From NCBI GenBank assembly GCA_030148045.1, contig JASBUE010000068.1, positions 1 to 54,557 on the forward strand: a stretch of 54,557 nucleotides of DNA. The letters run 5' to 3'. Shown here one piece after another: positions 17,589-42,985 of this stretch. The notes below the pieces were generated by a model. That model ran no database searches. It saw only the letters and a program-made list of their open reading frames with translations, and had not been told where the DNA came from. Numbering within the stretch: position 1 is the stretch's first letter; every line of letters begins with the position of its first letter. Position numbers and translations under genes: made by a program. Origin of the DNA: Candidatus Tenderia sp. (lineage in GTDB: Bacteria; Pseudomonadota; Gammaproteobacteria; Tenderiales; Tenderiaceae).

Positions 17589-19369
17589 GGCTCTATTTCG
17601 CTGTTGCGCTGCTGGCGGGCCTGTTGTTGGTATTGATACTGGAACTTGCGCCGCAGCAGGCCACCCGGGTCGTCGGGGATGCGGCGCAGCCACTGTTCGG
17701 TGGCGATGTCGGTTTCCGACGTCTCGGTATATTCCCGCGCCGGCATGGGGCGTTGTTCTTCGCCTTCGCGAGCTTCGCCGTTTTGCTCCCGGCCGAGTTG
17801 CCGTTGTTCACCCTCGGCCTGATCGGCCTCCTGCTGTTCGGCGGTTTGATTTTGTTGCTCGCCGCTTTGATCCGCCTGCCTCTGATCGCCCTGCTCACTT
17901 TGTTGTTGGACGGATTGTTGCTCGCCTTGTTGTTCCGGCGGGTCTTGTGGCTGTTCGCCTTGGCCGTCCTGCTGCGGCTCATCGCCCGGGCCCTGTTGCG
18001 ACTGTTTTTGCTTTTGCAGTTGCTCTTTAACCAGGTCGCGGTTGTAACGCGCATCCGCGTGATCCGGGTCAAGCTTCAAGGCTCGGTCATAGGTCTCGAT
18101 GGCCGCCGGATAGTCGCCCAACCGGGCCTGGGCATTGCCCTTATTGTAGAGGGCGTCGGCGCTCTCGATGCCTTGCAGCGCCTCCACGGCCTGTTCATAC
18201 TGCCCGGCGCGATAGCGGGCCGCCGCCTGCCATTGGGGATCATTAAACAACTCGGCAGCCTGCTCGGCATTGCCTTGCTTGAGTTGATGCAGGCCTTGTT
18301 GATTGTCATTGCGAAACAGGTCGGCCAGCTCCACGGCGTCGGCGTTTTGCGGCAGGGGCGACAGCGCGACAATCGCCAACATTGCCAAATGGCCGCGGCG
18401 AAACGCCAATGCCGCCAATAGCAGCAAGGGCAGCAACAACCACGGCCCGGCTTCACGCCATTGGTCACTCTTCAGGCCCTTGACCTGGGCTTCGGTTTTG
18501 CGCTCGCTGCTGACGACCTCGAGCAAGGTTTCGATATCCCGATCGCCGGCCGTGATGCGGTGGTAACGGCCGCCACCCTGGCGTGCCAGTTGTTGCAGTG
18601 CGGCGGCGTCCAGCTTGGGAATGACGATGGCGCCCCCACGATCCTTGAGAAAGCCGCCGTCACGCAGGGCGATGGGCGCGCCCTCTGGCGTGCCCACCGC
18701 CAGCACGGACACGCGGTGTGGGTGGGCGTCGAGCGCGGTCAAGGTGTGTTGCAGATCGCGTTCATCGATGCCGTCGGTAATGAGCAAGATGTCGCCCTTG
18801 GGCACACCGGCCTGCTGCAACAGCTGCGCCGCTCTGGCCACGGCGGCCGAGGTGTCGCTGCCCTGCAGCGGCATCATATTGGTGTCCAGGGCGTTGACCA
18901 GGGCGATGAGGGTATTGGCGTCGTCGGTGAGTGGCGACACGGTAAAGGCCTCGGCGGCATAGACGATCAGGGCGGTCTGGCCTTCGCGGCGCTGCTTGAG
19001 GATGTCGATCAGCTTCAAGCGGGCGCGCGCCAGGCGACTGGGTTTGATATCGGTGGCATCCATGGAACGCGACAGGTCCAGGGCGATCACCAGCGCCGAC
19101 GGATCGCGAAACACCGGTTGCCTGCGTTGTTCACAGGCGGGCCCGGCCAGGGCCAGGATGGCCAGCAGCCCGGCCAGGGCGGTGACCCGCAGCGGCCAGC
19201 GCGCCGCCCTGGCCGTGCCGCCCTGCAGGATGTATGGCAACAAACGGGCGTCGCAGACCGCCTGCCAGGCGCCCGCTTTGGCGCGGCGTCGACTCAGCAG
19301 CCACAGCAACAGGGCCAGCGGCAGCAACAGCCAGAACCCTTCCGGGCGCAGGAAATGACAGCTAGCCAT
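17582..19369 (-). CDS. batB: BatB-BatC-like fusion: TM + von Willebrand A domain + TPR + Gln/Glu-rich tail
   Basis: VIALDLSRSMDATD (MIDAS DxSxS). TPR repeats (ALYNKGNAQARLGDYPAAIETYDRALKLDPDHADARYN). Long QQ/E-rich low-complexity C-terminus. Confidence 0.85.
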   Translation of the reverse strand: MASCHFLRPEGFWLLLPLALLLWLLSRRRAKAGAWQAVCDARLLPYILQGGTARAARWPLRVTALAGLLAILALAGPACEQRRQPVFRDPSALVIALDLSRSMDATDIKPSRLARARLKLIDILKQRREGQTALIVYAAEAFTVSPLTDDANTLIALVNALDTNMMPLQGSDTSAAVARAAQLLQQAGVPKGDILLITDGIDERDLQHTLTALDAHPHRVSVLAVGTPEGAPIALRDGGFLKDRGGAIVIPKLDAAALQQLARQGGGRYHRITAGDRDIETLLEVVSSERKTEAQVKGLKSDQWREAGPWLLLPLLLLAALAFRRGHLAMLAIVALSPLPQNADAVELADLFRNDNQQGLHQLKQGNAEQAAELFNDPQWQAAARYRAGQYEQAVEALQGIESADALYNKGNAQARLGDYPAAIETYDRALKLDPDHADARYNRDLVKEQLQKQKQSQQGPGDEPQQDGQGEQPQDPPEQQGEQQSVQQQSEQGDQRQADQSGEQQNQTAEQQEADQAEGEQRQLGREQNGEAREGEEQRPMPAREYTETSETDIATEQWLRRIPDDPGGLLRRKFQYQYQQQARQQRNSEIEPW

Positions 19370-20363
19370 GCCGCCGCCTCAGGCCGGGCAGGCTCAGAGC
19401 CAGGATCAACAGCGTGGCCAAGGCCATGGCCGCGCCCAGGGGATAGACATACAACGCCTGCAGGGGACGGAACACCTGCGCCTCCTGCTCGGTGAGTTCC
19501 AGTTGATCGATCAGGTTGTAGATCTGTTTCAGCTCCTCGGTGTCGCGGGCGCGAAAGTAACGCCCGCCGGTGGTGTCGGCGATGGCGGTCAACACGTCCT
19601 CGTCAAGGTCGGCCGAGGGATTGACGCGCTGTCGGCCGAACAGGGATTGCACCACCATTTCGTCGGCGCCGATGCCGATGGTGTAGATCTTCAGGCCCTT
19701 GTCCGCCGCCAGCTCGGCTGCCTTGAGCGGCGCCACCTCGCCGGCGGTATTGGCGCCGTCGGTGAGCAGGATCATGACTTGATCAGTAGTCGGCGCGTCG
19801 CCCAGGCGCTTGACCATCAGGCCGATGGCGTCGCCGATGGCGGTGGCCTGCCCCGCCAGGCCGATGACCGCCTCGTAAAGCAGGGTGCGCACCGTGTCGC
19901 GATCGAAGGTGAGCGGTGTCTGCAGATAGGCCTGTTCACCGAACAGGATCAGGCCCACCCGGTCGCCGACGCGGCGCTGGATGAATTCACCGGCGATGGC
20001 CTGGGTCGCTTCCAGGCGGTTGACCACCCGGCCGCCGAGTTGAAAATCGGGGGTGTCCATGCTGCCGGACATGTCCACCGCCAGCATCAGGTCGCGACCG
20101 CTGGTGGGCAGTTCGATAGGCTCGCCGAGCCATTGCGGCCGCGCCGCCGCGGTCACCAGACACAGCCAGGCCAGGCTTGCCAGCAACAGAGGCCAGTGCC
20201 GTTGCTTGAAACGGATCGCGCGCGCGCCGATGTTCTGGAAGTCTTCGATAAAGGGCACGCGCAGGGCGGCGTCTTGTTGCGATTTGGCTGCCGGCAGCAG
20301 TAGCCGCAGCAATAAAGGCAGGGGTAGGGCGGCGAAGGCCCACAGCCATTCGAACTGGATCAT
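19362..20363 (-). CDS. batA: BatA (VWA domain membrane protein)
   Basis: MIQFEWLWAFAALPLPLLL..., MLAVDMSGSMDTPD MIDAS motif, C-terminal TM. ATG 20363 overlaps the DUF4381 stop (ATGA). Confidence 0.85.
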   Translation of the reverse strand: MIQFEWLWAFAALPLPLLLRLLLPAAKSQQDAALRVPFIEDFQNIGARAIRFKQRHWPLLLASLAWLCLVTAAARPQWLGEPIELPTSGRDLMLAVDMSGSMDTPDFQLGGRVVNRLEATQAIAGEFIQRRVGDRVGLILFGEQAYLQTPLTFDRDTVRTLLYEAVIGLAGQATAIGDAIGLMVKRLGDAPTTDQVMILLTDGANTAGEVAPLKAAELAADKGLKIYTIGIGADEMVVQSLFGRQRVNPSADLDEDVLTAIADTTGGRYFRARDTEELKQIYNLIDQLELTEQEAQVFRPLQALYVYPLGAAMALATLLILALSLPGLRRRHG

Positions 20364-20827
20364 GCCGCGCCTCCCCGGGTTGGGAGATGTTGCAGCCAAT
20401 CACGGCAGGCATGGAGCAGGGCTTGGGGATTGCCGGCGAAGTTTTTTTCATAAGGGGCATGCAGCAGAGTGGCGGCGGTCTCGCCATCGAACAGGGCTGT
20501 CTTGCCGTGCTGATTGAGAAATGCCAGCCATGCGTCGCCGGTGAGCCCGGCCACCTCGTGCCGGGGGAAGCGGCTGAGGGCCGCGCGGCGCAACAGCACC
20601 GAGCATTCGCTCGCCAATCGTTGGCTGTCGCCATGCTCGGCAAAGCTTTGTTCGATGCGCTGCAATTCCGCCATGGCCTGTTTGCGCAGGCGCAGCCGGC
20701 GCACGGCCCAGACGGCCATGGTGACCATCGTCAGCACCGCCAGCAACAACCACCAGCCCGGTGCCGGCGGCCAGCCGCTCACCCCGTCGGGCAGATGGAT
20801 GTCGCGCAGCGGCAGCTCGCCGTTCAT
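20360..20827 (-). CDS. DUF4381 domain protein
   Basis: LRDIHLPDGVSGWPPAPGWWLLLAVL is the DUF4381 signature. Conserved position between the DUF58 and batA genes. ATG 20827 overlaps the DUF58 stop. Confidence 0.8.
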   Translation of the reverse strand: MNGELPLRDIHLPDGVSGWPPAPGWWLLLAVLTMVTMAVWAVRRLRLRKQAMAELQRIEQSFAEHGDSQRLASECSVLLRRAALSRFPRHEVAGLTGDAWLAFLNQHGKTALFDGETAATLLHAPYEKNFAGNPQALLHACRDWLQHLPTRGGAA

Positions 20828-21765
20828 CGCCGTTTTCCTAATCCGGCCTGCAACGTCTGCAACAGATCGGCGTCGGTGGCGCAGCTGAGATAATGGATGC
20901 CGGGAAAGCGGCACAGCTGTTTCAATGCTTCGCAGTGCTCGCGGAAGTGCCTTTGATAGCCGCTTTGGGTTCGTTGATCATCACCGCTGAACAGACTGCT
21001 GCGTTCGCCCCAGGCGACGCGATAGACGCCGCGCCGCGGCAGTTCGACCTCGAGCGGATCATAGATATGAAACAACACCACGTCATTATGACGCGCCAGT
21101 TGCGCCAGGTGGGATTCGGCCTGGGCGCCCAGCTTGCGGAAATCGCTGCACAGAAAGATCAGGCTGCCCGGTTTGGCGACGCGGCGCAGGCGCGCCAGGG
21201 CCATATCGGCGTCGGGTTCCCGTTCGTTGTAATGGCTTTGCCATCGCGAGGCCTGACTCAATTGGCGCAGCAGACTCAGCACCGCCGACTTGCCGCGTTT
21301 GGGGCGCAGTTCGTGATGCATGGCGGCGCTGAACACCAGCCCGCCGAGGCGGTCGCCCTGCCGGTTGGCACTCCAGCCGATGAGGGCGGCGGCGCGGGCG
21401 GCGACCACCGACTTGAAGGCGCCGCGGGTGGCGAAAAACATGGCGGGGCGCATATCCACCCAGACCAGCACGGTGCGCTCGCGCTCTTCGCGAAACAGTT
21501 TGGTGTGCAGGGCGCCGGTGCGGGCGGTGACGCGCCAGTCCAGGGTGCGCACGTCATCGCCGGCTTGATACAGGCGCGCCTCGTCAAACTCCATGCCGCG
21601 GCCCTTGAAGCGCGACAGATAACCGCCGCTTTGCTGCGCCTTGATGCGCAGGGCCCTGAGCGACAGTTTCTCACCGGCGCCGCGCAGGGCGATCAGGGCC
21701 TCGGCGGAGACCCGCACCAGGTTGTCGCCGTCAGCATCCGGGTCGGCCGCGTGGAACAACGTCAT
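20824..21765 (-). CDS. DUF58 domain protein (MoxR partner)
   Basis: SRFKGRGMEFDEARLYQAGDDVRTLDWRVTARTGALHTKLFREERE is the DUF58 core motif. Confidence 0.85.
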   Translation of the reverse strand: MTLFHAADPDADGDNLVRVSAEALIALRGAGEKLSLRALRIKAQQSGGYLSRFKGRGMEFDEARLYQAGDDVRTLDWRVTARTGALHTKLFREERERTVLVWVDMRPAMFFATRGAFKSVVAARAAALIGWSANRQGDRLGGLVFSAAMHHELRPKRGKSAVLSLLRQLSQASRWQSHYNEREPDADMALARLRRVAKPGSLIFLCSDFRKLGAQAESHLAQLARHNDVVLFHIYDPLEVELPRRGVYRVAWGERSSLFSGDDQRTQSGYQRHFREHCEALKQLCRFPGIHYLSCATDADLLQTLQAGLGKRR

Positions 21766-22727
21766 GGTACGGCAACGCTATGGATCAACTCGTCGATGAA
21801 TGTGTCGGCGCTGACGCCGTCGGCCTCGGCCTCGTAGCTAAGGATGATGCGGTGGCGCAGCACATCAAAGGCCAGGGCCTGAATGTCTTCCGGCGTCACA
21901 TAGTCGCGTCCCTGCAGCCAGGCGTGGGCGCGGGCGCTGCGGTCCAGGGCGATGGTGGCGCGCGGGCTGGCGCCGAATTCGACCCATTGATTCAACTCCG
22001 TGCCGTAAGCGACTGGCTTGCGCGTCGCCAGCACCAGTTGCAGCAGATATTCCTCCAGATTGTCGGCCATGTGAATCTGCAGCACCTCTTTGCGAGCGCC
22101 GAACAGGGCCTGCTGGGTGATCAGGGTGCGCGGGGCATGGTGTGCATGTTGCGCCTCGTCGCGCGCCAGATGCAGGATCTCGCGCTCGGCCGCGGCGTCG
22201 GGATAGTCGATGACGACGTGCAAGAGAAACCGATCCAGCTGCGCCTCGGGCAGGGGATAGGTGCCCTCCTGTTCGATGGGGTTCTGGGTCGCCATCACCA
22301 GAAACAGCTCGGGCAGTTTGTGGGTCACGGCGCCGACGGTGATCTGGCGTTCCGCCATGGCCTCCAACAACGCCGATTGCACCTTGGCCGGGGCGCGGTT
22401 GATCTCGTCCGCCAGCACCAGGTTGTGAAACAGCGGCCCGGGCTGAAATTCAAAGCGGCCGTCCTGGGGGCGAAATACCTCGGTGCCGGTGAGATCGGCG
22501 GGCAGCAGGTCGGGAGTGAACTGCACGCGGTGGAAGTCGCCTTCGACGGCCTCGCTCAGGGTCTTGATGGCGCGGGTCTTGGCCAGTCCCGGGGCGCCTT
22601 CCACCAGCAGGTGGCCGTCGCACAGCAGGGCCACCAGCAGGCGGTCCACCAGGGCCTCCTGGCCGATGATCTGGCGGGTGATGTGTTGCTTGAGTTGTTG
22701 AATCTCGTGTTGATACGACATGGGCAT
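21762..22727 (-). CDS. moxR: MoxR-family AAA+ ATPase
   Basis: IIGQEALVDRLLVALLCDGHLLVEGAPGLAKT (Walker A). LADEINRAPAKVQSALLEAM (Walker B / sensor). Confidence 0.9.
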   Translation of the reverse strand: MPMSYQHEIQQLKQHITRQIIGQEALVDRLLVALLCDGHLLVEGAPGLAKTRAIKTLSEAVEGDFHRVQFTPDLLPADLTGTEVFRPQDGRFEFQPGPLFHNLVLADEINRAPAKVQSALLEAMAERQITVGAVTHKLPELFLVMATQNPIEQEGTYPLPEAQLDRFLLHVVIDYPDAAAEREILHLARDEAQHAHHAPRTLITQQALFGARKEVLQIHMADNLEEYLLQLVLATRKPVAYGTELNQWVEFGASPRATIALDRSARAHAWLQGRDYVTPEDIQALAFDVLRHRIILSYEAEADGVSADTFIDELIHSVAVP

Positions 22728-22998: not shown

Positions 22999-25341
22999 AT
23001 GATTTTTGAACGCCTGAAAAACAGCGAACCCCTGCCGGAACTGACCGAGGTCGCCGAGCTGGGAATGAACACCGATGACCTGGCGGAGGACTTTCGCCGC
23101 CATTTCAGCACCACTTTGGGGCGCGATCGCTTTTGCCGCTCCACCCATTACCCCTACACCGCCCTGGCGCTGGTGTTGCGCGACCGGTTGATGGAGCGCT
23201 GGAAGAACACCCGCTACGCTTATCAGGAGAAAAACACCCGCCGCGCCCATTACCTGTCGCTGGAGTTCTTGATGGGGCGCGCCCTGGGCAACGCCATGCT
23301 CAATCTGGGGGTCACCGATGCCGCCACCGCGGCGCTGGAGCGTTACGGCATCGAACTGGAAGAGATCGCCGAGGCGGAGCACGATGCCGGCCTGGGCAAC
23401 GGCGGTCTGGGACGCTTGGCGGCCTGTTTTCTCGACAGCTGCGCCACCCTGCAGCTGCCGGTGATCGGTTACGGCATTCGTTACGAATACGGCATGTTCC
23501 GTCAGGAGCTCATGAACGGCTACCAGGTGGAGGAGCCGGATCATTGGCTGCGTAACGGCAATCCCTGGGAGCTGGAGCGTCACGAGTTTACCCAGCGTGT
23601 CCACTTCCGTTGGCGTACCGAATTTTATCGCGACGCGCAGGGCGTCATGCGCGTACGCTGGGTCGATACGCAGGATGTGCTAGCGGTGCCTTTTGACGTA
23701 CCTGTGCCGGGTTATCGCAACGGCACGGTGAATACCCTGCGCTTGTGGAGCGCGGCGGCCACCGACGAGTTCAGCCTCGACGAGTTCAACGCCGGCGACT
23801 ATACCGGTTCGGTGGCCAGCAAGAACGACGCCGAGCAGATCACCATGGTGCTCTATCCCAACGACGCCAGCGAAAGCGGCAAGGAGTTGCGCCTGAGGCA
23901 GCAATACTTTCTCGCCGCCGCCAGCCTGCGTGATGTCTTCCGTCGCTGGATCCGCGATCACGGTCGTGACTTCAGTACCTTTGCCGAGAAGAACTGCTTC
24001 CAGCTCAACGATACCCATCCCACCATCGCCATCGCCGAACTGATGCGTCAGTTGATGGACAATCATTGCCTCAGTTGGGAGGAGGCCTGGCGAATTACCG
24101 GCAGCACCGTGGCCTACACCAACCACACCCTGTTGCCCGAGGCGCTGGAGAAATGGCCGGTGCGGGTATTCAAACAACTGTTGCCGCGCCATCTGGAGAT
24201 CATTTATGAAATCAACGCGCGCTTTCTCGGTGAGGTGGCGCGGCGCTGGCCCGGCGATACGGATCGTCTGGCGCGCATGTCCATTATCGAAGAGGGGGAC
24301 GAACCGCAGGTACGCATGGCCTATCTAGCCATTGTCGGCAGCTATTCCGTCAACGGCGTGGCGGCGCTGCATTCCCAGTTGTTACAGGAAGGGCTGTTTC
24401 ATGATTTTTATGAGTTCTGGCCGGAGAAATTCAACAACAAGACCAACGGCGTCACCCAGCGGCGCTGGCTGGCCTGGTGTAATCCGGCACAGAGCGAGTT
24501 GATCAGCGGCACCATCGGCGATGATTGGGTCACCCATCTGGAGCACCTGGAAAAACTCAAACCCTATGCCGAAGACGCCGCTTTCCGTAAACAATGGCGC
24601 GAGGTGAAACGGGCTAACAAGCAGCGCCTGGCCGAACTGGTGAAGAGGGATTGCGGCGTCGATTTCAGCGTCGATGCCATGTTCGATGTGCAGGTCAAGC
24701 GCATGCATGAATACAAACGCCAGTTGCTCAATGTGCTGCACGTGATTCATCTCTACGACCGCATCAAGCGCGGCGATACGGCTAACTGGACACCGCGCTG
24801 CGTACTCATCGGCGGCAAGGCCGCGCCCGGTTATGCCATGGCCAAACGCATCATCAAGCTGATCAACAATGTCGCCTTCATGATCAACAACGATCCGGCG
24901 GTAGGGGATCTGCTCAAGCTTGTGTTTTTGCCGGACTATCGCGTCACCGCCATGGAGATCATCGCGCCGGGCACCGATCTGTCGGAGCAGATCTCCACCG
25001 CCGGCAAGGAGGCCTCGGGGACCGGTAACATGAAGTTCATGATGAACGGTGCCATCACCATCGGCACGCTGGATGGGGCCAATATCGAGATCCGCGAAGA
25101 GGTGGGGGACGACAGCTTCTTTCTCTTCGGGCTGACCGCCCAGGAGGTGGTCGAGGCCCGCCGCGACTATGATCCCAACGCCATCATCCGCGACGACGCC
25201 GACCTGTTGCGGGTGATGAAGCTGATCGAGTGCGGCCACTTCAACCAGTTCGAACCGGGCCTGTTCGATGACATCATTCAGTCCATTCGCAACCCGCAGG
25301 ATCCCTGGCTGGTGGCGGCGGACTTTCGCAGTTTCGTCTAG
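22999..25341 (+). CDS. glgP: Glycogen/maltodextrin phosphorylase, terminated early by an in-frame TAG (conserved tail continues in frame to 25497)
   Basis: HYPYTALALVLRDRL, EAEHDAGLGNGGLGRLAACFLDS and the PLP-site GKEASGTGNMKFMMNGA. After TAG 25339-25341 the same frame encodes [43 protein letters not shown], the canonical phosphorylase C-terminus. Confidence 0.9.
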   Translation: MIFERLKNSEPLPELTEVAELGMNTDDLAEDFRRHFSTTLGRDRFCRSTHYPYTALALVLRDRLMERWKNTRYAYQEKNTRRAHYLSLEFLMGRALGNAMLNLGVTDAATAALERYGIELEEIAEAEHDAGLGNGGLGRLAACFLDSCATLQLPVIGYGIRYEYGMFRQELMNGYQVEEPDHWLRNGNPWELERHEFTQRVHFRWRTEFYRDAQGVMRVRWVDTQDVLAVPFDVPVPGYRNGTVNTLRLWSAAATDEFSLDEFNAGDYTGSVASKNDAEQITMVLYPNDASESGKELRLRQQYFLAAASLRDVFRRWIRDHGRDFSTFAEKNCFQLNDTHPTIAIAELMRQLMDNHCLSWEEAWRITGSTVAYTNHTLLPEALEKWPVRVFKQLLPRHLEIIYEINARFLGEVARRWPGDTDRLARMSIIEEGDEPQVRMAYLAIVGSYSVNGVAALHSQLLQEGLFHDFYEFWPEKFNNKTNGVTQRRWLAWCNPAQSELISGTIGDDWVTHLEHLEKLKPYAEDAAFRKQWREVKRANKQRLAELVKRDCGVDFSVDAMFDVQVKRMHEYKRQLLNVLHVIHLYDRIKRGDTANWTPRCVLIGGKAAPGYAMAKRIIKLINNVAFMINNDPAVGDLLKLVFLPDYRVTAMEIIAPGTDLSEQISTAGKEASGTGNMKFMMNGAITIGTLDGANIEIREEVGDDSFFLFGLTAQEVVEARRDYDPNAIIRDDADLLRVMKLIECGHFNQFEPGLFDDIIQSIRNPQDPWLVAADFRSFV

Positions 25342-25515
25342 GCTCAACGGCGTGTCGCCGAGGCCTATCGCGACGAGGAGCGCTGGACCCGTATGAGCAT
25401 CCTCAATGCCGCCAGCAGCGGCAAGTTCTCCACCGACCGCACCATGCGGGAATACAACGAAGGGATTTGGAAGTTGGAGTCGGTTTCAGTCCGCTAATGC
25501 ACGCAAATTAAGGCT

Positions 25516-25604
25516 CCCCTCTTTTTAAAGAGGGGGTGGGGGAGATTTAAAGCCAAGAGTTTCAAATCTTTAAATCCCCCTCAGTCCCCCTTTAAGAAAG
25601 GGGG
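25516..25604. repeat. Three tandem related palindromes (C4-5 / AT core / G4-5) between convergent glgP and the asnB-like gene
   Basis: cccctcttt-tt-aaagagggg (25516-25535). gggggaGAtttaaag...ctttaaatccccc (25538-25580). cccccttt-aag-aaaggggg (25586-25604). Likely bidirectional terminators or REP-like units. Confidence 0.6.
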
Positions 25605-27679
25605 AGGCTGGTGTGTTTTATTTGCGTGTATTGGCGTTCATTCGCAGACTGTTTGTTCCCTCGGTACCAAGCCGCCCAGCCCAGCTCCTCGGCGCGTTTG
25701 CCCGCCTGGGCCGGCACGTCGGTGGTGACGAAGTGGCGGTGCAGCACCTGGATGCCGATCATGTGGTTGATCACCGCGTCCAGCTGCACCTTGGTGGAGG
25801 CCGTGGTGTCGTCCGCCTCGTGCAGATCAAACACCGCTTTCACGCCGTCCTTGTCCAGCACGCCGGCCGCCTCGATGGCCTGGTCTGACAGATACTCATC
25901 GGCCAGGGCCCTCATGGCATTCCATTTCTTGGGATCGGTGTGGGCCGGCGGCGCCATGAAGGCGAACTTCTCGCGTTCGTACAAGGTCTTGGGCAGGATG
26001 CCCTTCATCGCCTCGCGCAGCACGTATTTTTCGGTGCGGCCCTTGATGCGCAGGGTGGGCGGCAGCCGGGTGGCTGTCTCGGCCAGGTGGTGGTCGAGGA
26101 AGGGCGGGCGTGCTTCCATGGAGTTGGCCATGTCGACCCGGTCGCCGCCCCAGGTGAGGATCTGGCCTTCCAGCATGGTCTTGATCCAGACGTACTGGGC
26201 CTTGTCCAGGGGATGACGCCCTGCCAGCATGTCGCCGTCCAGGGCCTCGGCGATGGCCCTGCCGGGCTCATAGCCCTCGGTCTGCTGGCGCAACTCGGGA
26301 TGCAGCAGGCCGGGCACGTGTTCGGCGGCGGCCAGCCAGGGTTGCAGGCAGCTGGGGGTGAAGCCGACCAGTTCATCCAGGGCCGGGTCGTGGAGTTCGT
26401 TTTCCGCCAGCATGGCGCCCTGGAACAGTTTGTTGCTTTCCGCCAGCAGGGCCTCCCATTCCTTGCGCTCTTGCGGCGGCAGGGTGTCCAGGCCGTGCAG
26501 GAACATGTCGCGGCGGAAGGCGGGGTAGCCGGCGAACAGTTCGTCCGAGCCCTCGCCGGTGACCACCACCTTGTAGCCGGCCTGGTTGACGTGGCGGCTC
26601 ATGAGCAGCTTGGCGACACCCAGGGTATTGTAGATGGTGCGTTCGGTATGCCACAGGGTTTCGACGAAGTTGTCGTAAAGATGGTCGGCCTTGAGGCGCA
26701 TGATGTCCTGGTCGGCGCCGACGGATTCGGCCATCTCGGTGGCGATGGCGCTTTCGTCGTAATCGGCGTCGTCGAAGCCGATGGTGAAGGCCTTCACCGG
26801 CGCTTGCTGGCTGGCGGCGGCCAGGCCCAGGGTGGCGCAGGAGTCGATGCCGCCGGACAGATAACAGGCCACCGGCACGTCGGCATCCAGGAGCAGTTGC
26901 ACCGCCTCGAGCAGTTTTTCGCGGATGGCCTCGATGTAGAACGCTTCCGGCTGCGATTCGTCACGCTCGCCCATGAGCGGGAAGTCCATGTCCCAATACT
27001 TCTCGTCTTTGATCTCGAACCTGCCGTTGTTGCGTTCGATGATCACCACGTGCCCCGGCTTCACCTGGTGAACGCCTTCGAAGGCGGTGGTGCCGGGCAC
27101 GATGGTCTGCATCAACTGGTGATAGACGCCTTGGGCGCTGAAGCGGCGCGGCACCTCGGGATGGGCGAACAGCACCTTAAGCTCCGAGACGAACACCAGG
27201 GTGCCGTTGTGCTCGGTCCAGTAGAGCGGCTTGACGCCGAAGCGATCGCGCACCAGCATCAGGCGGTCGTGTTCGCGATCGTAGAGGGCGAAGGCGTATT
27301 CGCCGCGGCAGGTCTTGAGCATCTCCTCCAGGCCGAAGCGCTCGTAGAGGTGCAGCACCAGTTCCGAGTCGCTCTTGGTTCTGAAACGCGCGCCGCGCGA
27401 GGTCAGATCGGCGCGAATACGCTTATAGTCGTACAGCTCGCCGTTCTGGGTCAGCATCAGCTTGCCGTCGTTGGAGAAGAAGGGCTGGCGGCCGCGGTTC
27501 TCATCCAGGTCGATAATGGACAGCCGGGCGTGGCTGAAGCCGATGCCGCGGTCATTCATGGTCTTGTAGCCGAAGCCGTCCGGGCCGCGATGGTGCTGGA
27601 TGGCGGCCATGTTGACCAGGGTTTGTGGGTCTACCGGCCGGGCCGGGTCTGCATGTAGGTAGCCTGCAATTCCGCACAT
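25592..27679 (-). CDS. Asparagine synthetase-like glutamine amidotransferase (class II, Ntn-Cys)
   Basis: MCGIAGY N-terminus. Synthetase-domain PP-loop YLSGGIDSC. 695 aa, longer than typical AsnB. Confidence 0.85.
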   Translation of the reverse strand: MCGIAGYLHADPARPVDPQTLVNMAAIQHHRGPDGFGYKTMNDRGIGFSHARLSIIDLDENRGRQPFFSNDGKLMLTQNGELYDYKRIRADLTSRGARFRTKSDSELVLHLYERFGLEEMLKTCRGEYAFALYDREHDRLMLVRDRFGVKPLYWTEHNGTLVFVSELKVLFAHPEVPRRFSAQGVYHQLMQTIVPGTTAFEGVHQVKPGHVVIIERNNGRFEIKDEKYWDMDFPLMGERDESQPEAFYIEAIREKLLEAVQLLLDADVPVACYLSGGIDSCATLGLAAASQQAPVKAFTIGFDDADYDESAIATEMAESVGADQDIMRLKADHLYDNFVETLWHTERTIYNTLGVAKLLMSRHVNQAGYKVVVTGEGSDELFAGYPAFRRDMFLHGLDTLPPQERKEWEALLAESNKLFQGAMLAENELHDPALDELVGFTPSCLQPWLAAAEHVPGLLHPELRQQTEGYEPGRAIAEALDGDMLAGRHPLDKAQYVWIKTMLEGQILTWGGDRVDMANSMEARPPFLDHHLAETATRLPPTLRIKGRTEKYVLREAMKGILPKTLYEREKFAFMAPPAHTDPKKWNAMRALADEYLSDQAIEAAGVLDKDGVKAVFDLHEADDTTASTKVQLDAVINHMIGIQVLHRHFVTTDVPAQAGKRAEELGWAAWYRGNKQSANERQYTQIKHTSLPLS

Positions 27680-27713
27680 AAGAGTGTGTTCCTTCGGTTC
27701 TTGATGATTATGA

Positions 27714-28706
27714 TTAAGATAATAGTTCGTCGGGGGTGTCGATGACGTGCTGGACGCGCTGTACCACGCTGGTGAGCAGGGCCATGCGGATGTAAACGGC
27801 GCCGCGGGCCTGGGCGAAATACCAGTTGTGGTCGGTGTCGTCCAGGTCGGTGGACAGCTCGTCGCCGCGCGCCAGCGGATGCATGATGATCGAGCCCGCT
27901 TTGAGCGGGGAGCCGGCGTTGAGCTTCAGATCTTCGCCCATGCGCTCGAAGGTGTCGCCGACCCAGGCGATGGAGTTGATGTACACCACGTCCAGCTTCG
28001 GCAGTTCCTTGTTCAGCGAGTGACTGACGCGGATGTTGAGCCCCTCTTGCTGCAGTTCCTCCAGCTGGCCTTCATCGTACGGATGATCATCCTCGCAGAT
28101 CACCACCACCTCCTCGAAGGCGTGAGCGTAGAGCGACATCATGATCAACAGCGAACGCACGGTGCGCATCTTGTTGGGCACACCGATGATGCCTATGCGC
28201 GCCTTGTCCTGCGTCGCCACCTGCCCGTCTAACAGCTGGGGACGCCATTTGAAAATGGCGAACATGTCGGTCAGCGCCTGGGTGGGATGCTCGTCGATGC
28301 CGTTGCCCGCATTGATAATGGGGATGCGCAGCGCATCCAGCATCTCGTAGACGGCGTCTTCGTTGCGGTCGCGCAATACCACCACGTCACCATAGTGATT
28401 GAACATTTCGGCCACGTCGCCCAGCGATTCGCCCTTGGCGATGCCGGTGGTGGCGGGATCGGTGATGCTCATCACATCGCCACCCAGGCGATGCCAGGCG
28501 CTCTCGAAGGAGAGCCGCGTGCGCGTGCTGGGCTCGTAAAAGGCGTTGATCAGGATCTTGCCCTTAAGCGGCGGGAACAGATTGGGCGAGGTCTCGTACA
28601 GGGCCGCCAGGCGGCAGATCTGGGCGATTTTGTCGCGGCTGAACTGGCGCGCCGAGACGATGGGCATGCCGGCCAGGTCGACCAGGTATTGTGGATCTTC
28701 CTCCAC
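27714..28706 (-). CDS. Aspartate/ornithine carbamoyltransferase-fold enzyme with a divergent acceptor-binding domain
   Basis: STRTRLSFE, HPTQAL and HPLARGDE are present, but the canonical Y(M)TR(V)QKER segment reads YINSIAWVGDTFER. Start uncertain; see the upstream GTG 28796 finding. Confidence 0.8.
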   Translation of the reverse strand: MEEDPQYLVDLAGMPIVSARQFSRDKIAQICRLAALYETSPNLFPPLKGKILINAFYEPSTRTRLSFESAWHRLGGDVMSITDPATTGIAKGESLGDVAEMFNHYGDVVVLRDRNEDAVYEMLDALRIPIINAGNGIDEHPTQALTDMFAIFKWRPQLLDGQVATQDKARIGIIGVPNKMRTVRSLLIMMSLYAHAFEEVVVICEDDHPYDEGQLEELQQEGLNIRVSHSLNKELPKLDVVYINSIAWVGDTFERMGEDLKLNAGSPLKAGSIIMHPLARGDELSTDLDDTDHNWYFAQARGAVYIRMALLTSVVQRVQHVIDTPDELLS

Positions 28707-28900
28707 CTGGTCGAGCAGGCGCTGCGGCCGCTAGATGCCGTCGCGCCATTTGGCGGGGGTGACCGGATTCCTGAGCAGGGGGTGAAGTGGTTTCACCGGG
28801 TCTCTCCTTATTCTTTAAACAGGTGTGGAAAATCAAATACTGAGCAGTGTCTGTGTCAACGGTATGACGCCGGACAGGGGCATTGGCCTGCATGAGGTAT

Positions 28901-29632
28901 TCATCTGGCCTTCTCCTTCAGGTCGGCCAGTTCCGCCAGCGCCTCTTGCGTGGAAATGACGCGGGCATAACGATCCTTCATGGTGGTGATGGTGGCCTTT
29001 TGCAGCTCGGGCGTCACCGTGGCGCAGCCGTCCTCGATCAGGGTGACGTAGAAGCCGAGATCGCAGGCATCCCTGATGGCGGTGGAGACGCATTCGTTAC
29101 TGTAGACGCCGGCGATGTACAGGCCGGTGATTTCCATGTTGCGCAGGATGTATTCCACATTGGTGGCGTTGAAGACACCGCTGGCGGTCTTGTTGATGAC
29201 GATTTCATCGCCCTGGGGCGCCACCTGGGGCAGGAATTCGGCCTCCTTGGAGCCGGGCGGTGCGTGCAGCTTGAGCCGCTTGTGCCCCGGGCCGCGGTCG
29301 CGACCGTCTTGGGTCAGGGATTGGATGCGGGTGTGGATGACCTCCAGCCCTTTGCGTCTGAAACCGTCCTGCAGCTTGCGCACATTGGGCAGCACGGTTT
29401 CTTCCAGGCGGTTGAAATAATACTCCTGGGCCTCCACCGGCACGCCTGATTTCTCCACGTCGGCAAACACGCCGTAGCCGGGGGCGGCGTCGAGGAATTG
29501 CAGATCGATGGTCAGCAGGGCGGTATGGTATTGCTCCAGCGACTTGTGGACCGCCGGGGCATCGGTAATCGATTCGCGATAGGTTTCGCGTAAGGGGTCG
29601 ACATTGACAAATTCTTGGTGTTTTATCGTCAT
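28901..29632 (-). CDS. Isochorismatase-family cysteine hydrolase (amidase-like)
   Basis: ALLTIDLQ near the N-terminus. ...LYIAGVYSNECVSTAIRDA (catalytic Cys context) is typical of isochorismatase/CSHase/RutB-type hydrolases. The start overlaps the upstream stop (ATGA). Confidence 0.8.
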   Translation of the reverse strand: MTIKHQEFVNVDPLRETYRESITDAPAVHKSLEQYHTALLTIDLQFLDAAPGYGVFADVEKSGVPVEAQEYYFNRLEETVLPNVRKLQDGFRRKGLEVIHTRIQSLTQDGRDRGPGHKRLKLHAPPGSKEAEFLPQVAPQGDEIVINKTASGVFNATNVEYILRNMEITGLYIAGVYSNECVSTAIRDACDLGFYVTLIEDGCATVTPELQKATITTMKDRYARVISTQEALAELADLKEKAR

Positions 29633-30489
29633 TTTTCGCTAGCCAGCTTGTGGAGGGTGTTCAGTAATATGTTAGCCCCGTTTTCGATATCCTCCCAGGC
29701 GGTCCATTCGGCCGGCGAATGGCTGCGGCCGTCCTTGCTGGGGACGAAGATCATGCCGGCGCGGGTTATCTTCGACATGATCTGGGTGTCGTGGGCGGCG
29801 CCGCTGGGCATTTGCAGCATGGATAGGCCATCGGCCTGGGCCGACTCGCTGATCAGTTGCATCACGCCGGGATCGCATTTCACCGGCGCGATATCGCTCA
29901 GTACTTCGAATTCGAACATCAAGTCGCGGCGCCGGGCGATGGCGGAGATGGCGCGGCGGAAGGCACTGGACAACTCTTCCAGTTTTTCATGATTGGTTTC
30001 GCGCACGTCGAGCGAGAATTCCACCAGGCCGGGCACCACGTTGGCGGCGCCCGGTGACAATTCGACGCAGCCGATGGTGGCGACGCTGCTGGGGCTGCCG
30101 TGCTCTTCCAGGATGCGGGGAATCTCGCCGGAGAATTCCGCCAGGCCTTGAAAGGCATCCTGGCGCATGTCCATGGGCGTGGAACCGGCATGGCCGGCCA
30201 TGCCGAACAGCTTCACATTCCATTTGAACAGGCCGGCGATGGCATCCACCACGCCGATCTTGATATGGCGGCGATCGAGCACCGGCCCCTGCTCGATATG
30301 CAATTCCACAAAGGCGTGAATGCTCTCGGCCGGTCGCGCGGCGCTCAGGGCGTCCATGGCGTTCATGCCCCAGTGGGCCATGGCCTCGCTGATGGAGATG
30401 CCGTCGAGGTCACGAGAATGATAGATACTTTCGGGCGTCAGGCGGCCGCAGATGGCGCTGGAGCCGAAGATGCCGCCGAAGCGTCCCTC
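29629..30489 (-). CDS. M20-family N-carbamoyl-L-amino-acid / allantoate amidohydrolase-like enzyme, part downstream of an in-frame TAG
   Basis: In frame with 30490..30870. Reads EGRFGGIFGSSAICG...FVELHIEQGPVL...AGHAGSTPM...SGAAHDTQ. The ORF track begins at ATG 30381, but the frame is open from 30489. Confidence 0.8.
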   Translation of the reverse strand, partial: EGRFGGIFGSSAICGRLTPESIYHSRDLDGISISEAMAHWGMNAMDALSAARPAESIHAFVELHIEQGPVLDRRHIKIGVVDAIAGLFKWNVKLFGMAGHAGSTPMDMRQDAFQGLAEFSGEIPRILEEHGSPSSVATIGCVELSPGAANVVPGLVEFSLDVRETNHEKLEELSSAFRRAISAIARRRDLMFEFEVLSDIAPVKCDPGVMQLISESAQADGLSMLQMPSGAAHDTQIMSKITRAGMIFVPSKDGRSHSPAEWTAWEDIENGANILLNTLHKLASEK

Positions 30490-30870
30490 CTAATCGGAGA
30501 AGGCCACGGCCTCCAGCGGCCGCACAACATCGACCTCTTGTTCCTTGAGACAGCGCAGGCACTCCAATCCGGCCACCACGCCCAAGGCGCCGTCCAGTTG
30601 TCCGCCGCCGGGCACCGAATCGATATGGGAACCGGTCATGACGCTGGCCTTGCCCTCGCGCCAATGGAGACGGGCGTGAACATTGGCCGCGCCATCCATA
30701 TAATAGTCCAGCCCGGCGCTCTCGATACGTTGACGCAACCAGTCCCGGGCCTGCATGTCGGCGGCGCTGAAGGCCATGCGGTAGATGCCCTGGTCTTCCG
30801 CCCGGCCGATTTCGGCCAGCGCGGCGAGATCATCGCGCAAACGCTCGGCATTGATTCTGAGGCTGCTCAT
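30490..30870 (-). CDS. M20-family amidohydrolase, N-terminal part ending at an in-frame TAG
   Basis: MSSLRINAERLRDDLAALAEIG...GSHIDSVPGGGQLDGALGV...AVAFSD-TAG. Family members read DEEG here. Confidence 0.8.
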   Translation of the reverse strand: MSSLRINAERLRDDLAALAEIGRAEDQGIYRMAFSAADMQARDWLRQRIESAGLDYYMDGAANVHARLHWREGKASVMTGSHIDSVPGGGQLDGALGVVAGLECLRCLKEQEVDVVRPLEAVAFSD

Positions 30871-31566
30871 GATGGGCGGGCTCCGATATTGCTGGGCGGG
30901 ATGAAAAATTGGCGCTGCGCGGAAGCAGTGTCCGGCACCAGTGCAGGGGCGGGGCTTTGCGCGCGAATCGCTGTGTGTGCAAATGGGTTTGGGCTGTGAA
31001 GCGACGCCCTGCCTATCGACAGGGCGGCTTGTTGTGAAGTCGATTCATCTCTGGTGGGATTGGTAATATCGAGCATATATTCCTGTATCGAGTTTTCCGT
31101 CATCTGACTATGTGGTCAATCTCAACTCCGTTCACCGTCATACATGAACGCCAACCGTTGTTTGTGAGTCAGAAGACTGGATAAACGGCAGCGGGGCATT
31201 CATCAAGCATTCACTCCGTCGATGTTGCCGGCCTTGCCATTCGGGTGTTTGGATCGAATGTACTCACTATCCGCGTCGGTGTTTTTTCGTCTTGGATCAG
31301 TCAGGGCCTGATGCGAAAAACAGCTTCCGTATTGGCCGGCATTCGCTAACCCCTTATTCATTCAAAAGGTTTTGGCTCTGAATGTCAAATTTTCGAGGCC
31401 GTAGGGGATGGTTTTGCGCTTGTAATATGCTGCGAAACAGGCGCTTATACAGACCGTAAAAAGCACGTAATAATTTTGTTGTTTCTCTGCGCGGAAAAGC
31501 CGGATGCTGATATCATCGCCTCGCGATGATTTAGGGGGCGTTTTTCGATGACCGAGACACCCAGCG

Positions 31567-31806
31567 ATGAATATGTTTAGTAAGGTCCCGTTCTTGCGCA
31601 ACATCGCCTTGACAGCGCCGTATTTTCACTTAGGAAAGGTCCGAAGCTTGAGGCGGGTGGTCGGCGTGATGGGCTCCGCCCAGCTGGATATCCAGCTTAC
31701 AGACAGTGAAGCTGAAAAGATCGTTGCATTCCTGCATGCGCTGCCAGGTGACCAGCCCAAGGTCGGCTATCTGGTCTTGCCGCCGATTACGCCTTCCACA
31801 CACTAG
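31567..31806 (+). pseudogene. C-terminal remnant of a di-heme cytochrome c peroxidase (CCP/MauG family)
   Basis: FSKVPFLRNIALTAPYFHLGKVRSLRRVV..M....L...E...IVAFLHALPGD matches the CCP C-terminal signature. Upstream frames are broken, no heme motifs remain, and the surrounding sequence is AT-richer. Confidence 0.6.
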
Positions 31807-32028
31807 CCCACTGGAATCGGCCGCCTTTGTCGGACGGCCTCGTGGCACTCACGTTTGTGAGTTCGGTACAGGAATGTTGAGTGACCTATTGCAGTCTTGT
31901 AGGCGGTGCATTGAGGTTGCTTGACAGGTATCAATCCCCCATCTACTTTGAGTTTTGACTTCTTTAAAAAACGATCTTAATAATTTAATTATTAAGTGAT
32001 AACTGGTGGCGTATCCAGGGAGGGGGCA

Positions 32029-35802: not shown

Positions 35803-37242
35803 TCAATCTCGGGCTGTGCTTGGCAAGCGCCGGAACAGCAACAGCGCCCGTTTGCGGCTGTTGTTCAGATCCAGGGTCGGTGCCGGGTAGTCCACACCGA
35901 TACGTACATTGCAGGTGTGCTGGATCTCCGCCGGCGCCAGCCAGGGAGTATGCAACCAGCGCAGTGGCAGGCCGGCCAGTTCCGGCAGCCACTCGCTCAG
36001 GTAGCCACCGTTGGGATCGAAGCGCTCGCTTTGTCTGACCGGATTGAAGATGCGGAAATAGGGTGCGGCATCGAGTCCGCAGCCGGCCACCCATTGCCAG
36101 TTGAAGCTGTTGCTGGCCAGGTCGGCGTCCACCAAGGTGTCCCAGAACCAGCGGGCTCCCGTCTGCCAGGGCTGCAGACCGTTCTTGGTCAAAAACGAGG
36201 CGACGATCATGCGTACCCGGTTGTGCATCCAACCGGTATGCCAGAGTTGGCGCATGCCAGCGTCGATAATGGGAAAGCCGGTCTCGCCTTGTTGCCAGGC
36301 CTGCAGCAGGCGCTGATCGTTGCGCCAGGGAAACGCTTCATAGCGCGGGTTGAGCGGTTGGTCGGTGACACGGGGGAAGTGATGCAGGGTGTGATAGGCG
36401 AACTCGCGCCAGCCGAGTTCGCTGAGAAAGGTATCCATGCCGCTGCCCTGAGTGGCGTTATTCATAAACGAATTGAGCACGGCGCCGACCCCCTGGCGCG
36501 GGCTGAGCTCGCCGAATGCCAGATGCGGTGACAGGCGCGAGGTGCCGGCGCGGCCGGGGAGGTCGCGACCCTTTTCATAATCCTGCAGCGTCTCATCGCA
36601 AAAGCTTTGCAGCTGTTGTCGGGCGGCATTTTCCCCTGGCGTCCAATGAGTATAAAGGCCGTGGTCCCACGCGATCTTGGGTAGCAACGCCAAGGCCTCG
36701 ACGGTTTCCGATTTCAGTCGGCATTCACCCAAGCTTTCCGGCGGCGGCAGGGGGGGGTCGCCCAAGCCCTGTTGCCGGCAGGCACGCCAGAACGGGGTGA
36801 AGACGCGAAACGGTTTGTGTTCTTTATTTAATACGCTGCCCGGCGGGTAGAGCAGATTGCCGTGATAGGCATGGACCTCGATGCCTTGCTCTCTGAGCCA
36901 GGCCGCGATGTGTTTGTCGCGCCTGGCCGCCTGCGGTTCGTAGAGATGATTCCAGTAGACCGCGCCGGCACCGGTTTCACGAATGAGGCGCTGCAGGCTT
37001 TCCCGGCTGGCGCCGCGCCGAATGACCAGGCGGCTGCCGCGGGCGCGCAACGCGTCGTGCAGCGCGGTGAGGCTGTGATGGCGCCACCAACGGCTGGCCG
37101 CGCCCGGCGCCCAGGGCTCCAGTTCTTCCGGGGCATGGATGTAAACGGGGACGACCACATCCGACTGTTGCGCGGCATGGTAAAGGGCCGGGTTGTCCGT
37201 CAGGCGCAGATCCTGGCGCAACCAAACAATACAGGTCTTCAT
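35803..37242 (-). CDS. phrB: Deoxyribodipyrimidine photolyase (CPD class I)
   Basis: VWLRQDLRLTDNPAL... and C-terminal FAD-domain motifs TGFPIIDAGMRQLWHTGWMHNRVRMIVASFL..WQWVAG. Confidence 0.92.
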   Translation of the reverse strand: MKTCIVWLRQDLRLTDNPALYHAAQQSDVVVPVYIHAPEELEPWAPGAASRWWRHHSLTALHDALRARGSRLVIRRGASRESLQRLIRETGAGAVYWNHLYEPQAARRDKHIAAWLREQGIEVHAYHGNLLYPPGSVLNKEHKPFRVFTPFWRACRQQGLGDPPLPPPESLGECRLKSETVEALALLPKIAWDHGLYTHWTPGENAARQQLQSFCDETLQDYEKGRDLPGRAGTSRLSPHLAFGELSPRQGVGAVLNSFMNNATQGSGMDTFLSELGWREFAYHTLHHFPRVTDQPLNPRYEAFPWRNDQRLLQAWQQGETGFPIIDAGMRQLWHTGWMHNRVRMIVASFLTKNGLQPWQTGARWFWDTLVDADLASNSFNWQWVAGCGLDAAPYFRIFNPVRQSERFDPNGGYLSEWLPELAGLPLRWLHTPWLAPAEIQHTCNVRIGVDYPAPTLDLNNSRKRALLLFRRLPSTARD

Positions 37243-37255
37243 GGCTGCTGCTCCT

Positions 37256-42121: not shown

Positions 42122-42985
42122 TTATCGATCCTCGGCGAGATCAAACCAGGTTTCGGTCCACGGCATGAAATGGACCAGCCCTTCCAGGATCCCGGCGCTG
42201 TAGTTGCCGTTCATGCCCAGAAAATTTCCCCGGGCCAGATAAAGGTGTTCGCGGTTGTGGTTTTGCGCTGCCTGCTGTTCGGCCTGTTTGCGTACATCGT
42301 CCCGGGCATTGGCGACAAGTACGGAGTTGACTGAACTGGCCATCACGGCCAGGTCGTTGCCACTGTCGCCGGCGAACAGGGTCGTGTCGTGGGCGTAGCC
42401 TTTTTGTTTCCTCAGGAACTCGATGGCGTGCAGCTTGGTGGCGTTTTCGGGCAGCAGGTCCAGCAGGCCCACATGCTCCAGATCGTCGACGCTCCAGATC
42501 AGGCTGGCGCGGATGTTGTGTTGCCGCAGGCGCTGTTGCATCTCTGTCAGCAGGCCGTCCACATCGCAGTCTTCCGGTACGTAATAACTCAGCTTGAAGG
42601 TATTCTGTTTTTCCGTCTCCTGTTGCCTGAGTAGATTCATGTCGGTGAACAGCGCCGCCAGCCGGTCATGAGTGTAGCCGGCCCAGCAGGGGGCAATCTC
42701 CTGTTGCCAATCATCCCAGAGCTGCCATTCGCCTGATTGGATTTCATAGATGGTGCTGCCTACATCCCCCAGGACGTAATCGGGCGTGGGGAGTTGAAAT
42801 TCATCGATGGCGTCGAGCACCAGCGCCTTGTGGCGGCCGGTGACATAGGCGACATCCACCTCGGGTCGTTTTGCCAGTTGGGCGAACAGGCGTCTTGCCG
42901 CGGGCGATTCGGGGGGATCACCGTTGGGTAGGAGGGTACGGTCCAGGTCGGTGCAGATCAGGATTTTGTCAGACACGGGTCTCAC
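42122..42985 (-). CDS. HAD-IIB family phosphatase (sucrose-phosphate-phosphatase-like)
   Basis: ILICTDLDRTLL (DxD motif), VTGRH, and LFAGDSGNDLAVM (motif IV). Confidence 0.75.
   Translation of the reverse strand: MRPVSDKILICTDLDRTLLPNGDPPESPAARRLFAQLAKRPEVDVAYVTGRHKALVLDAIDEFQLPTPDYVLGDVGSTIYEIQSGEWQLWDDWQQEIAPCWAGYTHDRLAALFTDMNLLRQQETEKQNTFKLSYYVPEDCDVDGLLTEMQQRLRQHNIRASLIWSVDDLEHVGLLDLLPENATKLHAIEFLRKQKGYAHDTTLFAGDSGNDLAVMASSVNSVLVANARDDVRKQAEQQAAQNHNREHLYLARGNFLGMNGNYSAGILEGLVHFMPWTETWFDLAEDR

Follow-up and report, generated by a model that had tools for sequence, protein, structure and literature searches.

A conserved carbamoyltransferase and amidotransferase gene cluster as a candidate locus for an N-carbamoyl amino acid amide osmolyte in halophilic bacteria

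What compound would be handled by 4 adjacent genes encoding an aspartate carbamoyltransferase (ATCase)-fold enzyme, an asparagine synthetase-like (AsnB-like) amidotransferase and 2 hydrolases? This question is raised by positions 25592-30870 of a 54,557-nucleotide stretch of Candidatus Tenderia sp. DNA (contig JASBUE010000068.1), which was analysed as a whole and is referred to here as the window. A preliminary description of the window had recorded 4 co-directional genes at this place and had proposed that they assemble and dismantle an N-carbamoyl amino acid amide. Four minus-strand reading frames are indeed seen there, encoding, in the direction of transcription, an M20 N-carbamoyl-L-amino-acid amidohydrolase-like protein, an isochorismatase-family cysteine hydrolase, an ATCase-fold carbamoyltransferase paralogue and a glutamine-dependent AsnB-like amidotransferase. 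In comparison with a locus that is 86% identical (L004; L numbers denote the loci compared with the window), the ratio of nonsynonymous to synonymous substitution rates (dN/dS) is 0.09-0.10 in each of the 4 genes and there are no frameshifts or indels, indicating that the 4 features are not chance open reading frames (ORFs). Judging from gene content and conservation, we regard the locus with moderate confidence as a copy of a conserved operon that would serve the synthesis and recycling of a compatible solute that is uncharged and rich in nitrogen, an N-carbamoyl amino acid amide for which N-carbamoyl-glutamine amide is the best candidate.

With one genome per GTDB species scanned, 450 relatives of the ATCase-like protein were obtained, and the best 80 of these 450 loci were inspected; gene content was tabulated locus by locus with tblastn, and the counts out of 51 and out of 58 cover loci with enough flanking DNA. 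The co-occurrence expected of a functional unit is borne out, all 4 genes being found together in 48 of 51 species loci and the AsnB-like and ATCase-like genes being neighbours in 57 of 58. Both hydrolase genes are missing from L041 and L052, and the isochorismatase-family gene from L089. The usual order is M20, isochorismatase-family, a symporter in many loci, ATCase-like and AsnB-like, whereas in Leptospiraceae metagenome-assembled genomes (MAGs) it is symporter, ATCase-like, M20, isochorismatase-family and AsnB-like; thus, the association of the 4 genes is independent of gene order. More distant cousins are also informative. In one that is 42% identical, a small protein, the symporter, a 40-aa peptide and the ATCase-like, AsnB-like and M20 genes are all kept, and in another that is 41% identical (L090, 7001-15080; MAG GCA_035942955.1), only the ATCase-like/AsnB-like pair is kept. 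The neighbours of the latter pair are JmjC/cupin, TenA-like, deaminase, thymidylate-synthase-like and nucleoside deoxyribosyltransferase-like genes and 2 APH kinase genes, and the whole looks like a cluster for cytosine-nucleoside antibiotic biosynthesis. The persistence of the pair in cousins that are only 41-42% identical indicates that the ATCase-like and AsnB-like genes form an ancient functional unit.

The named hosts of the cluster are Ectothiorhodospira (seven species), Ectothiorhodosinus, Thioalkalivibrio, Thiohalophilus, Thiohalobacter and Nitrosococcus; the remaining ones are MAGs labelled Thiohalomonadales, Thioalkalispiraceae, Zetaproteobacteria, Leptospiraceae and similar. A correlation with halophily, for which the preliminary description had asked, is suggested by the hosts: halophilic, haloalkaliphilic and marine lineages dominate among the hosts, although this bias is unquantified and comes from the best 80 of the 450 loci. 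The bias in host habitat is suggestive of an osmotic role.

The acceptor of the carbamoyltransferase is central to the question. Family assignments were based on Pfam and NCBIfam profile scores against curated cutoffs. The protein encoded at 27714-28796 (minus strand) matches OTCace_N and OTCace and stays under every equivalog cutoff for ATCase and ornithine carbamoyltransferase, the best score being 185.5 bits against 263 (NF002032), with 184 against 237 for TIGR00670. The motifs first listed for it, STRTR, HPTQ, HPLAR and YINSIAWVGDTFER, are each found in the translation, and the carbamoyl-phosphate motifs are kept (EPSTRTRLSFE, EHPTQ and HPLAR). The loss of aspartate ligands, claimed on the first reading, stands up to alignment: T-R-I-Q-K-E-R of the archaeal ATCases 1ml4 and 2rgw aligns with N-S-I-A-W, with Arg229 replaced by Ser and Gln231 by Ala, and the canonical sequences in alignment A2 retain the R and the Q. 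Arg167 of RTVHS, which binds the alpha-carboxylate, is retained, as RTVRS (residue numbers are those of E. coli, assigned by motif). The first reading of the frame itself has to be revised. The true start is a GTG at 28796 preceded by AGGAG, giving a frame of 360 codons, and the 330-aa ORF is only the portion downstream of an in-frame TAG at codon 22 (28731-28733). Homologues are 355-365 aa long, and Glu22 is invariant in the family (alignment A1), lying within a conserved N-terminal extension.

The best solved relatives of the protein are ATCases, the archaeal ones at approximately 35% identity, and PyrB is accordingly the enzyme with which it has to be compared. The 2 share the fold, STRTR, KGES, HPTQ and the arginine of RTV(H/R)S. 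They differ in the R-x-Q ligands of the aspartate side chain, which read S-x-A here, in HPLPR, which reads HPLAR, and in the N-terminal extension of approximately 35 aa; furthermore, the gene has sub-cutoff scores, lacks a pyrI or pyrC context and occurs alongside a canonical pyrB. One of 4 features of PyrB membership is present and 3 are absent. The separate canonical pyrB that had been anticipated is found in L006, the Thiohalomonadales MAG that is the closest genome (81% protein identity), where pyrR-pyrB-pyrC' lies 7 kb upstream of the cluster and pyrB has RLQRER, but the 54 kb of the window contain no pyrB. A further group of ATCase-like proteins of approximately 355 aa in alignment A2 (P0141, P0143, P0146, P0149 and P0154) shares the N-terminal extension; in these proteins, STRTR and KGES are lost and HPTQ has become ENPTH or EHPTN, and they are possibly non-catalytic paralogues.

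The AsnB-like gene (25592-27679, minus strand) encodes a protein with Asn_synthase and GATase (GATase_6/7) domains, which scores 417 bits against a cutoff of 267 for TIGR01536 and carries in its translation both the N-terminal MCGIAG, which supplies the Cys nucleophile of the Ntn glutaminase, and the PP-loop, as SGGIDS. Its initially reported length of 695 aa is that of the frame as it stands; the family is approximately 670 aa long, and the excess comes from a change of TGA to TGG at the family stop position (25667-25669). Indeed, the protein is 90% identical to that of L004 through residue 670, L004 and L005 have TGA at this site, and none of the 120 best homologues (650-683 aa) has the 25-aa tail.

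For an enzyme of this kind next to a capping enzyme, the synthesis of N-acetylglutaminylglutamine amide (NAGGN) by asnO-ngg is the nearest known system in logic. Like NAGGN, the solute proposed here would be an uncharged glutamine derivative with a capped alpha-amino group and an amidated terminal carboxylate; in both cases amidation falls to a glutamine-dependent AsnB-family enzyme and the genes are arranged in an operon. By contrast, the proposed cap is a carbamoyl group transferred by an ATCase-fold enzyme, whereas that of NAGGN is an acetyl group and depends on Ngg, a GNAT/ATP-grasp protein. None of the tabulated loci contains an ngg-like gene, the AsnB-like protein is not an AsnO orthologue (298 bits against a cutoff of 570 for TIGR03104), and the operon considered here includes 2 hydrolases and usually also a symporter. 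The cluster is not a member of the NAGGN system. Glutathione amide synthesis was also considered as a role for the AsnB-like enzyme and was rejected, because it leaves the obligatory carbamoyltransferase partner unexplained.

The 2 hydrolases both have relatives that act on carbamoyl or amide groups. The isochorismatase-family gene (28901-29632, minus strand) is intact and encodes 243 aa; the ATGA overlap between its start and the stop of the M20 gene, already seen on the first reading, spans 4 nt at 29629-29632. The protein scores 114.7 bits against a cutoff of 27 for PF00857, and its closest solved relatives are the cysteine hydrolases 6xix/6xj4, a biuret hydrolase and N-carbamoylsarcosine amidase. 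The Asp-Lys-Cys triad is represented by the motifs IDLQ, NKTASG and NECV, of which the Lys and Cys align with 6xix and the Asp of IDLQ was picked out by inspection. The same fold and triad are found in BiuH, triuret-type hydrolases, N-carbamoylsarcosine amidase and RutB, all of which have terminal carbamoyl or amide groups as their targets; differences are the weak similarity (74 bits against an equivalog cutoff of 370 for BiuH and 47 against 378 for RutB), an N-terminal extension of approximately 75 aa in the present protein and the genomic context.

The M20 gene (29629-30870, minus strand; 413 codons) is interrupted, a point missed on the first reading: an in-frame TAG occupies codon 127 (30490-30492; "AFSD*EGRFGG"), where the catalytic EEG motif has its first Glu. 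L004, L086 and the other loci have an unbroken frame. With the stop masked or repaired, the window protein scores 533 bits against 399 for NF006771 and 381 against 204 for TIGR01879. Its best solved relative is the L-N-carbamoylase 3n5f (287 bits), and it reaches 388 bits with the model of ErtE, an N-carbamoyl-L-glutamate amidohydrolase, under the cutoff of 520. The likeness to these amidases extends over the full length and, in relatives of the window gene, includes the metal-ligand and EEG motifs; the differences are the absence of a hydantoinase or ergothioneine context and the stop in place of the catalytic Glu codon. The Arg of the LD(L/V)R(D/E) stretch, which we take from carbamoylase structures to be the binder of the substrate carboxylate, is conserved between the M20 protein and 3n5f. 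Catabolism of allantoin/oxalurate, biuret, hydantoin or creatinine and the Rut pathway, which the similarities of the hydrolases had brought into consideration, were rejected as explanations of the cluster, since none of them employs an AsnB-type amidotransferase and the hosts are mostly autotrophs.

A compound of the proposed type is known. N-carbamoyl-glutamine 1-amide (CGA), with the formula C6H12N4O3 and an [M+H]+ of 189.10, was described from Ectothiorhodospira marismortui (PMC1224877) and is reported to be known from this organism only, as a minor solute (PMC3857566). The genome record FOUO00000000 is that of E. marismortui DSM 4180T (PMC8877833), and contig FOUO01000006, which falls under it, carries an intact cluster of MarR, M20, isochorismatase-family, ATCase-like and AsnB-like genes (L066). 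Thus, the cluster is present in the CGA producer. The statement in the preliminary description that no genes had been assigned to CGA agrees with our search, as no assignment was found in the searched literature, nor were expression data for the cluster genes. Ectothiorhodosinus mongolicus, which also has the cluster, is reported to be without betaine and ectoine synthesis genes, and sucrose, CGA and NAGGN have been named as its possible solutes (PMC7824335).

The neighbours of the cluster form recurrent sets. An uncharacterised Na+/solute symporter gene is present in 38 of 51 loci, always with 2 partners. The first, a protein of approximately 130-170 aa, combines a signal peptide with a membrane helix at the C-terminus and probably has a beta-sandwich domain, FN3-like by eye (for instance, L006 5974-6471 and L001 5975-6454; 50 loci altogether); it has no Pfam or other family match. 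The second is a conserved 40-aa membrane peptide with the consensus ...APxxLLxLxxRDWKxGxLW and without Pfam or NCBIfam matches; its gene sits between those of the symporter and the carbamoyltransferase (L001 9885-10007, L006 9882-10004 and the same position in all symporter-containing loci), its stop codon overlapping the carbamoyltransferase start. The window, like Ectothiorhodospira, has the 4-gene form without a transporter. A gene for a MarR regulator lies upstream of the operon in 26 loci, Ectothiorhodospira and Thioalkalivibrio among these. Sucrose synthase is encoded divergently upstream in 12 loci, including all Ectothiorhodospira, Ectothiorhodosinus and 2 Thioalkalivibrio MAGs, and a PfkB sugar kinase downstream of the cluster in 12 loci; in Ectothiorhodospiraceae, the cluster stands between these 2 genes. 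In Ets. mongolicus, the 4 cluster genes overlap or sit 18 nt apart, and a gene for an MscS mechanosensitive channel follows 10 nt after the AsnB-like gene. MscS is also directly downstream in E. lacustris, 2 Thioalkalivibrio MAGs and another MAG; the same-strand MscS genes after the AsnB-like gene are those of L088 (11023-11931), L026 (13327-14220), L067, L055 and L016. Truncated MscS remnants occur in L025, L027 and L028, with 3 repeats of a 59-aa remnant in L025.

In the window itself, the M20 gene is preceded by an unusually long intergenic stretch of 1.1 kb with lower G+C (30871-31995), which holds only one small ORF of approximately 80 aa. It gives no blastn alignment to L004 beyond 27 nt upstream of the M20 start and is present in L086; in relatives, the matching position is taken by the MarR gene or by the gene for the small membrane-anchored protein. 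No known RNA or riboswitch was detected 5' of the cluster at Rfam gathering thresholds. Elsewhere in the window are a gene of the sucrose-6F-phosphate phosphohydrolase family (42122-42985, minus strand) and an SNF-family Na+ symporter gene (52583-53971, plus strand), both families being frequently linked with compatible-solute metabolism or uptake.

Read together, these features suggest a short pathway, of which the substrate, product, step order and osmotic role are what we infer from the gene content. The ATCase-fold paralogue would use carbamoyl phosphate to carbamoylate a neutral amino acid with a free alpha-carboxylate, probably glutamine, at its alpha-amino group; with L-glutamine, the product would be N-carbamoyl-glutamine. 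The AsnB-like enzyme would then adenylate the alpha-carboxylate and amidate it, its glutaminase domain supplying the ammonia, to yield CGA by the same chemistry as that of AsnO in NAGGN synthesis. For turnover, the isochorismatase-family cysteine hydrolase would take off the amide, after which the M20 enzyme would decarbamoylate the resulting N-carbamoyl-L-amino acid. In most relatives, the Na+/solute symporter, with the 40-aa peptide and the small membrane-anchored protein, may recapture or import the solute. Several independent lines, each circumstantial, back the osmolyte reading. The proposal that the cluster makes an N-carbamoyl amino acid amide is thus sustained by the co-conservation of the genes, the canonical pyrB of L006, the cluster of E. 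marismortui and the recurrent neighbours, and is qualified by the symporter, the breadth of distribution of the genes, the amber codons of the window copy and the translational coupling of hydrolase and synthetic genes in some genomes, which sits less easily with a plain scheme of synthesis against breakdown. The broader claim is that CGA is an osmolyte rich in nitrogen that occurs widely and has gone unnoticed, and that it is the product of an AsnB-type amidotransferase and an ATCase paralogue that took on a new function; this claim is made more tentatively, and we lean slightly against it.

A number of observations weigh against the osmolyte reading. The glutamine specificity of the ATCase-like enzyme is a guess from lost residues, for which the sequence offers no positive determinants. 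The hydrolase and synthetic genes of Ets. mongolicus are almost certainly co-transcribed, given their spacing, which would lead to futile synthesis and breakdown unless there is post-translational control. The symporter and the 40-aa peptide, both translationally coupled to the carbamoyltransferase gene, belong to the most conserved core, so that an imported compound could equally be the substrate. Hits of the cluster family are found in at least 450 species genomes, against a report of CGA in one organism. Thioalkalivibrio carries the cluster, and the salt tolerance of T. versutus D301 has been ascribed to glycine betaine (PMC9062515). Finally, in Thiorhodospira sibirica (L033, 9971-11056), an intact carbamoyltransferase gene stands alone among unrelated genes, and AsnB-like, hydrolase and symporter genes were not found within 10 kb of it.

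Among the alternatives, the one that survives best is that all 4 enzymes belong to a single biosynthetic route to another, non-osmotic product, such as an amino acid amide made by protection, amidation and deprotection, a nitrogen-storage compound, a signalling compound or a secondary-metabolite precursor. The tight translational coupling of the 4 genes in Ets. mongolicus would fit such a route, the 41%-identical pair of L090, in what resembles a nucleoside-antibiotic-type cluster, indicates that the pair can serve further products, and most host organisms have no detected product. We nevertheless consider it unlikely: the recurrent MscS, sucrose synthase and PfkB kinase neighbours point to osmoadaptation, as does the habitat bias of the hosts, 2 hydrolases exceed the needs of one deprotection step, and the presumed carboxylate-binding Arg of the M20 enzyme would make a carbamoyl amide an improbable substrate for it.

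Somewhat less probable still is that the operon serves to take up and assimilate a ureido or amide compound from outside, either as a nitrogen source or as an osmoprotectant made by others, with the hydrolases freeing ammonia and CO2 and the carbamoyltransferase and amidotransferase reusing the fragments or serving another branch. The symporter, the 40-aa peptide and the small membrane-anchored protein lie inside the operon in the 38 symporter-containing loci of the 51, MarR-type regulators are found upstream in the 26 loci mentioned above, and the hydrolases are nearest to the catabolic L-carbamoylase, biuret/triuret-type hydrolases and N-carbamoylsarcosine amidase. However, the hydrolytic release of nitrogen has no use for an AsnB-type amidotransferase, which consumes ATP and here has its glutaminase domain intact, and no carbamate kinase is present to harvest carbamoyl phosphate. 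Furthermore, the invariant core is the ATCase-like/AsnB-like pair rather than the hydrolases, as the losses in L041, L052 and L089 illustrate, and the window and the Ectothiorhodospiraceae are without the transporter. That the ATCase-like gene is a second or sole aspartate carbamoyltransferase of the pyrimidine pathway with unrelated neighbours is highly improbable: public annotations label it so and ATCases are its closest solved relatives, but it scores beneath all ATCase equivalog cutoffs, has both Arg229 and Gln231 substituted, is accompanied by a canonical pyrB in L006 and is linked to the AsnB-like gene in nearly all loci.

While the osmolyte reading concerns the operon as a family, the copy in the window raises a question of its own. 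In addition to the TAG codons in the M20 and ATCase-like genes and the lost AsnB-like stop, the convergent neighbour glgP (glycogen phosphorylase; 22999-25497, plus strand) has a change of GAG to TAG at 25339-25341, followed by 51 conserved codons up to the TAA at 25495-25497. There are thus 4 stop-related changes in 5.5 kb, 3 TAGs and one stop loss, and none elsewhere in the 54 kb. A codon log-odds scan of the 54 kb, which took the place of a GC3-based scan for interrupted genes that was judged too noisy, ranked the glgP and M20 stops as the 2 clearest in-frame stops, with nothing comparable elsewhere. In the window, the M20 gene is inactivated by its amber codon and the carbamoyltransferase gene is interrupted at codon 22, and the pathway as sequenced is probably nonfunctional here.

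Two public contigs that encode an identical isochorismatase-family protein, L086 and L087, match the window at 99.93% and 99.70% identity, respectively. L086 has GAG at both TAG sites of the cluster (28731-28733 and 30490-30492) and L087 has a G at 28733, that is, GAG at the ATCase-like site; L004 likewise has GAG at both positions. Since near-identical contigs have GAG where the window has TAG, the stops are specific to the window sequence and reflect either knock-outs of very recent date or mistakes in the record. We put at about an even chance the view that the 3 GAG-to-TAG changes and the TGA-to-TGG change are errors or alterations in the record, or very recent strain-specific knock-outs, as opposed to natural decay. 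Only 4 of 5915 positions differ between L086 and the window, and 2 of these are TAG sites; 4 random differences would include 2 or more nonsense changes with a probability of approximately 0.001. The 3 amber changes (in the M20, ATCase-like and glgP genes) are uniformly G-to-T, the rest of the 54 kb has no comparable in-frame stop, and dN/dS of approximately 0.1 without indels gives no sign of long-term decay. On the other hand, an identical pattern would arise from selection for loss or from a mutator with a G-to-T bias. Long-standing pseudogenisation was rejected, given the same dN/dS and lack of indels and the GAG codons at the TAG sites in contigs that are 99.7-99.9% identical. Recoding or suppression of TAG was also rejected, because 5 of 28 confident genes of the window, including groEL, end in TAG; no tRNA, and hence no suppressor tRNA, is encoded in the window.

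Other features of the window include a BatD/VWA/DUF58/MoxR operon (15888-22727, minus strand), a photolyase gene adjoining a gene for a B12-binding MerR regulator (35803-38158, minus strand) and a transfer-messenger RNA with the tag ANEDNYALAA (49974-50336, minus strand).

The genes for CGA have been without assignment since its description in 1991, and a 4-gene candidate that is present in the producing type strain makes the question testable. If the osmolyte reading holds, the ATCase fold would have a third class of acceptor in primary metabolism, and the synthesis of CGA would be the second of the "cap and amidate" type for an osmolyte, after that of NAGGN. The labels "aspartate carbamoyltransferase," "asparagine synthase" and "allantoate amidohydrolase" on the cluster genes would then need correcting. 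The hosts of CGA would number hundreds of species, including halophilic sulfur oxidisers, purple sulfur bacteria, the marine ammonia oxidisers of Nitrosococcus and some Leptospiraceae, and the solute would represent an overlooked nitrogen sink in Thioalkalivibrio, Ectothiorhodospira and Nitrosococcus, with a bearing on the sulfur and nitrogen cycles of saline and soda environments.

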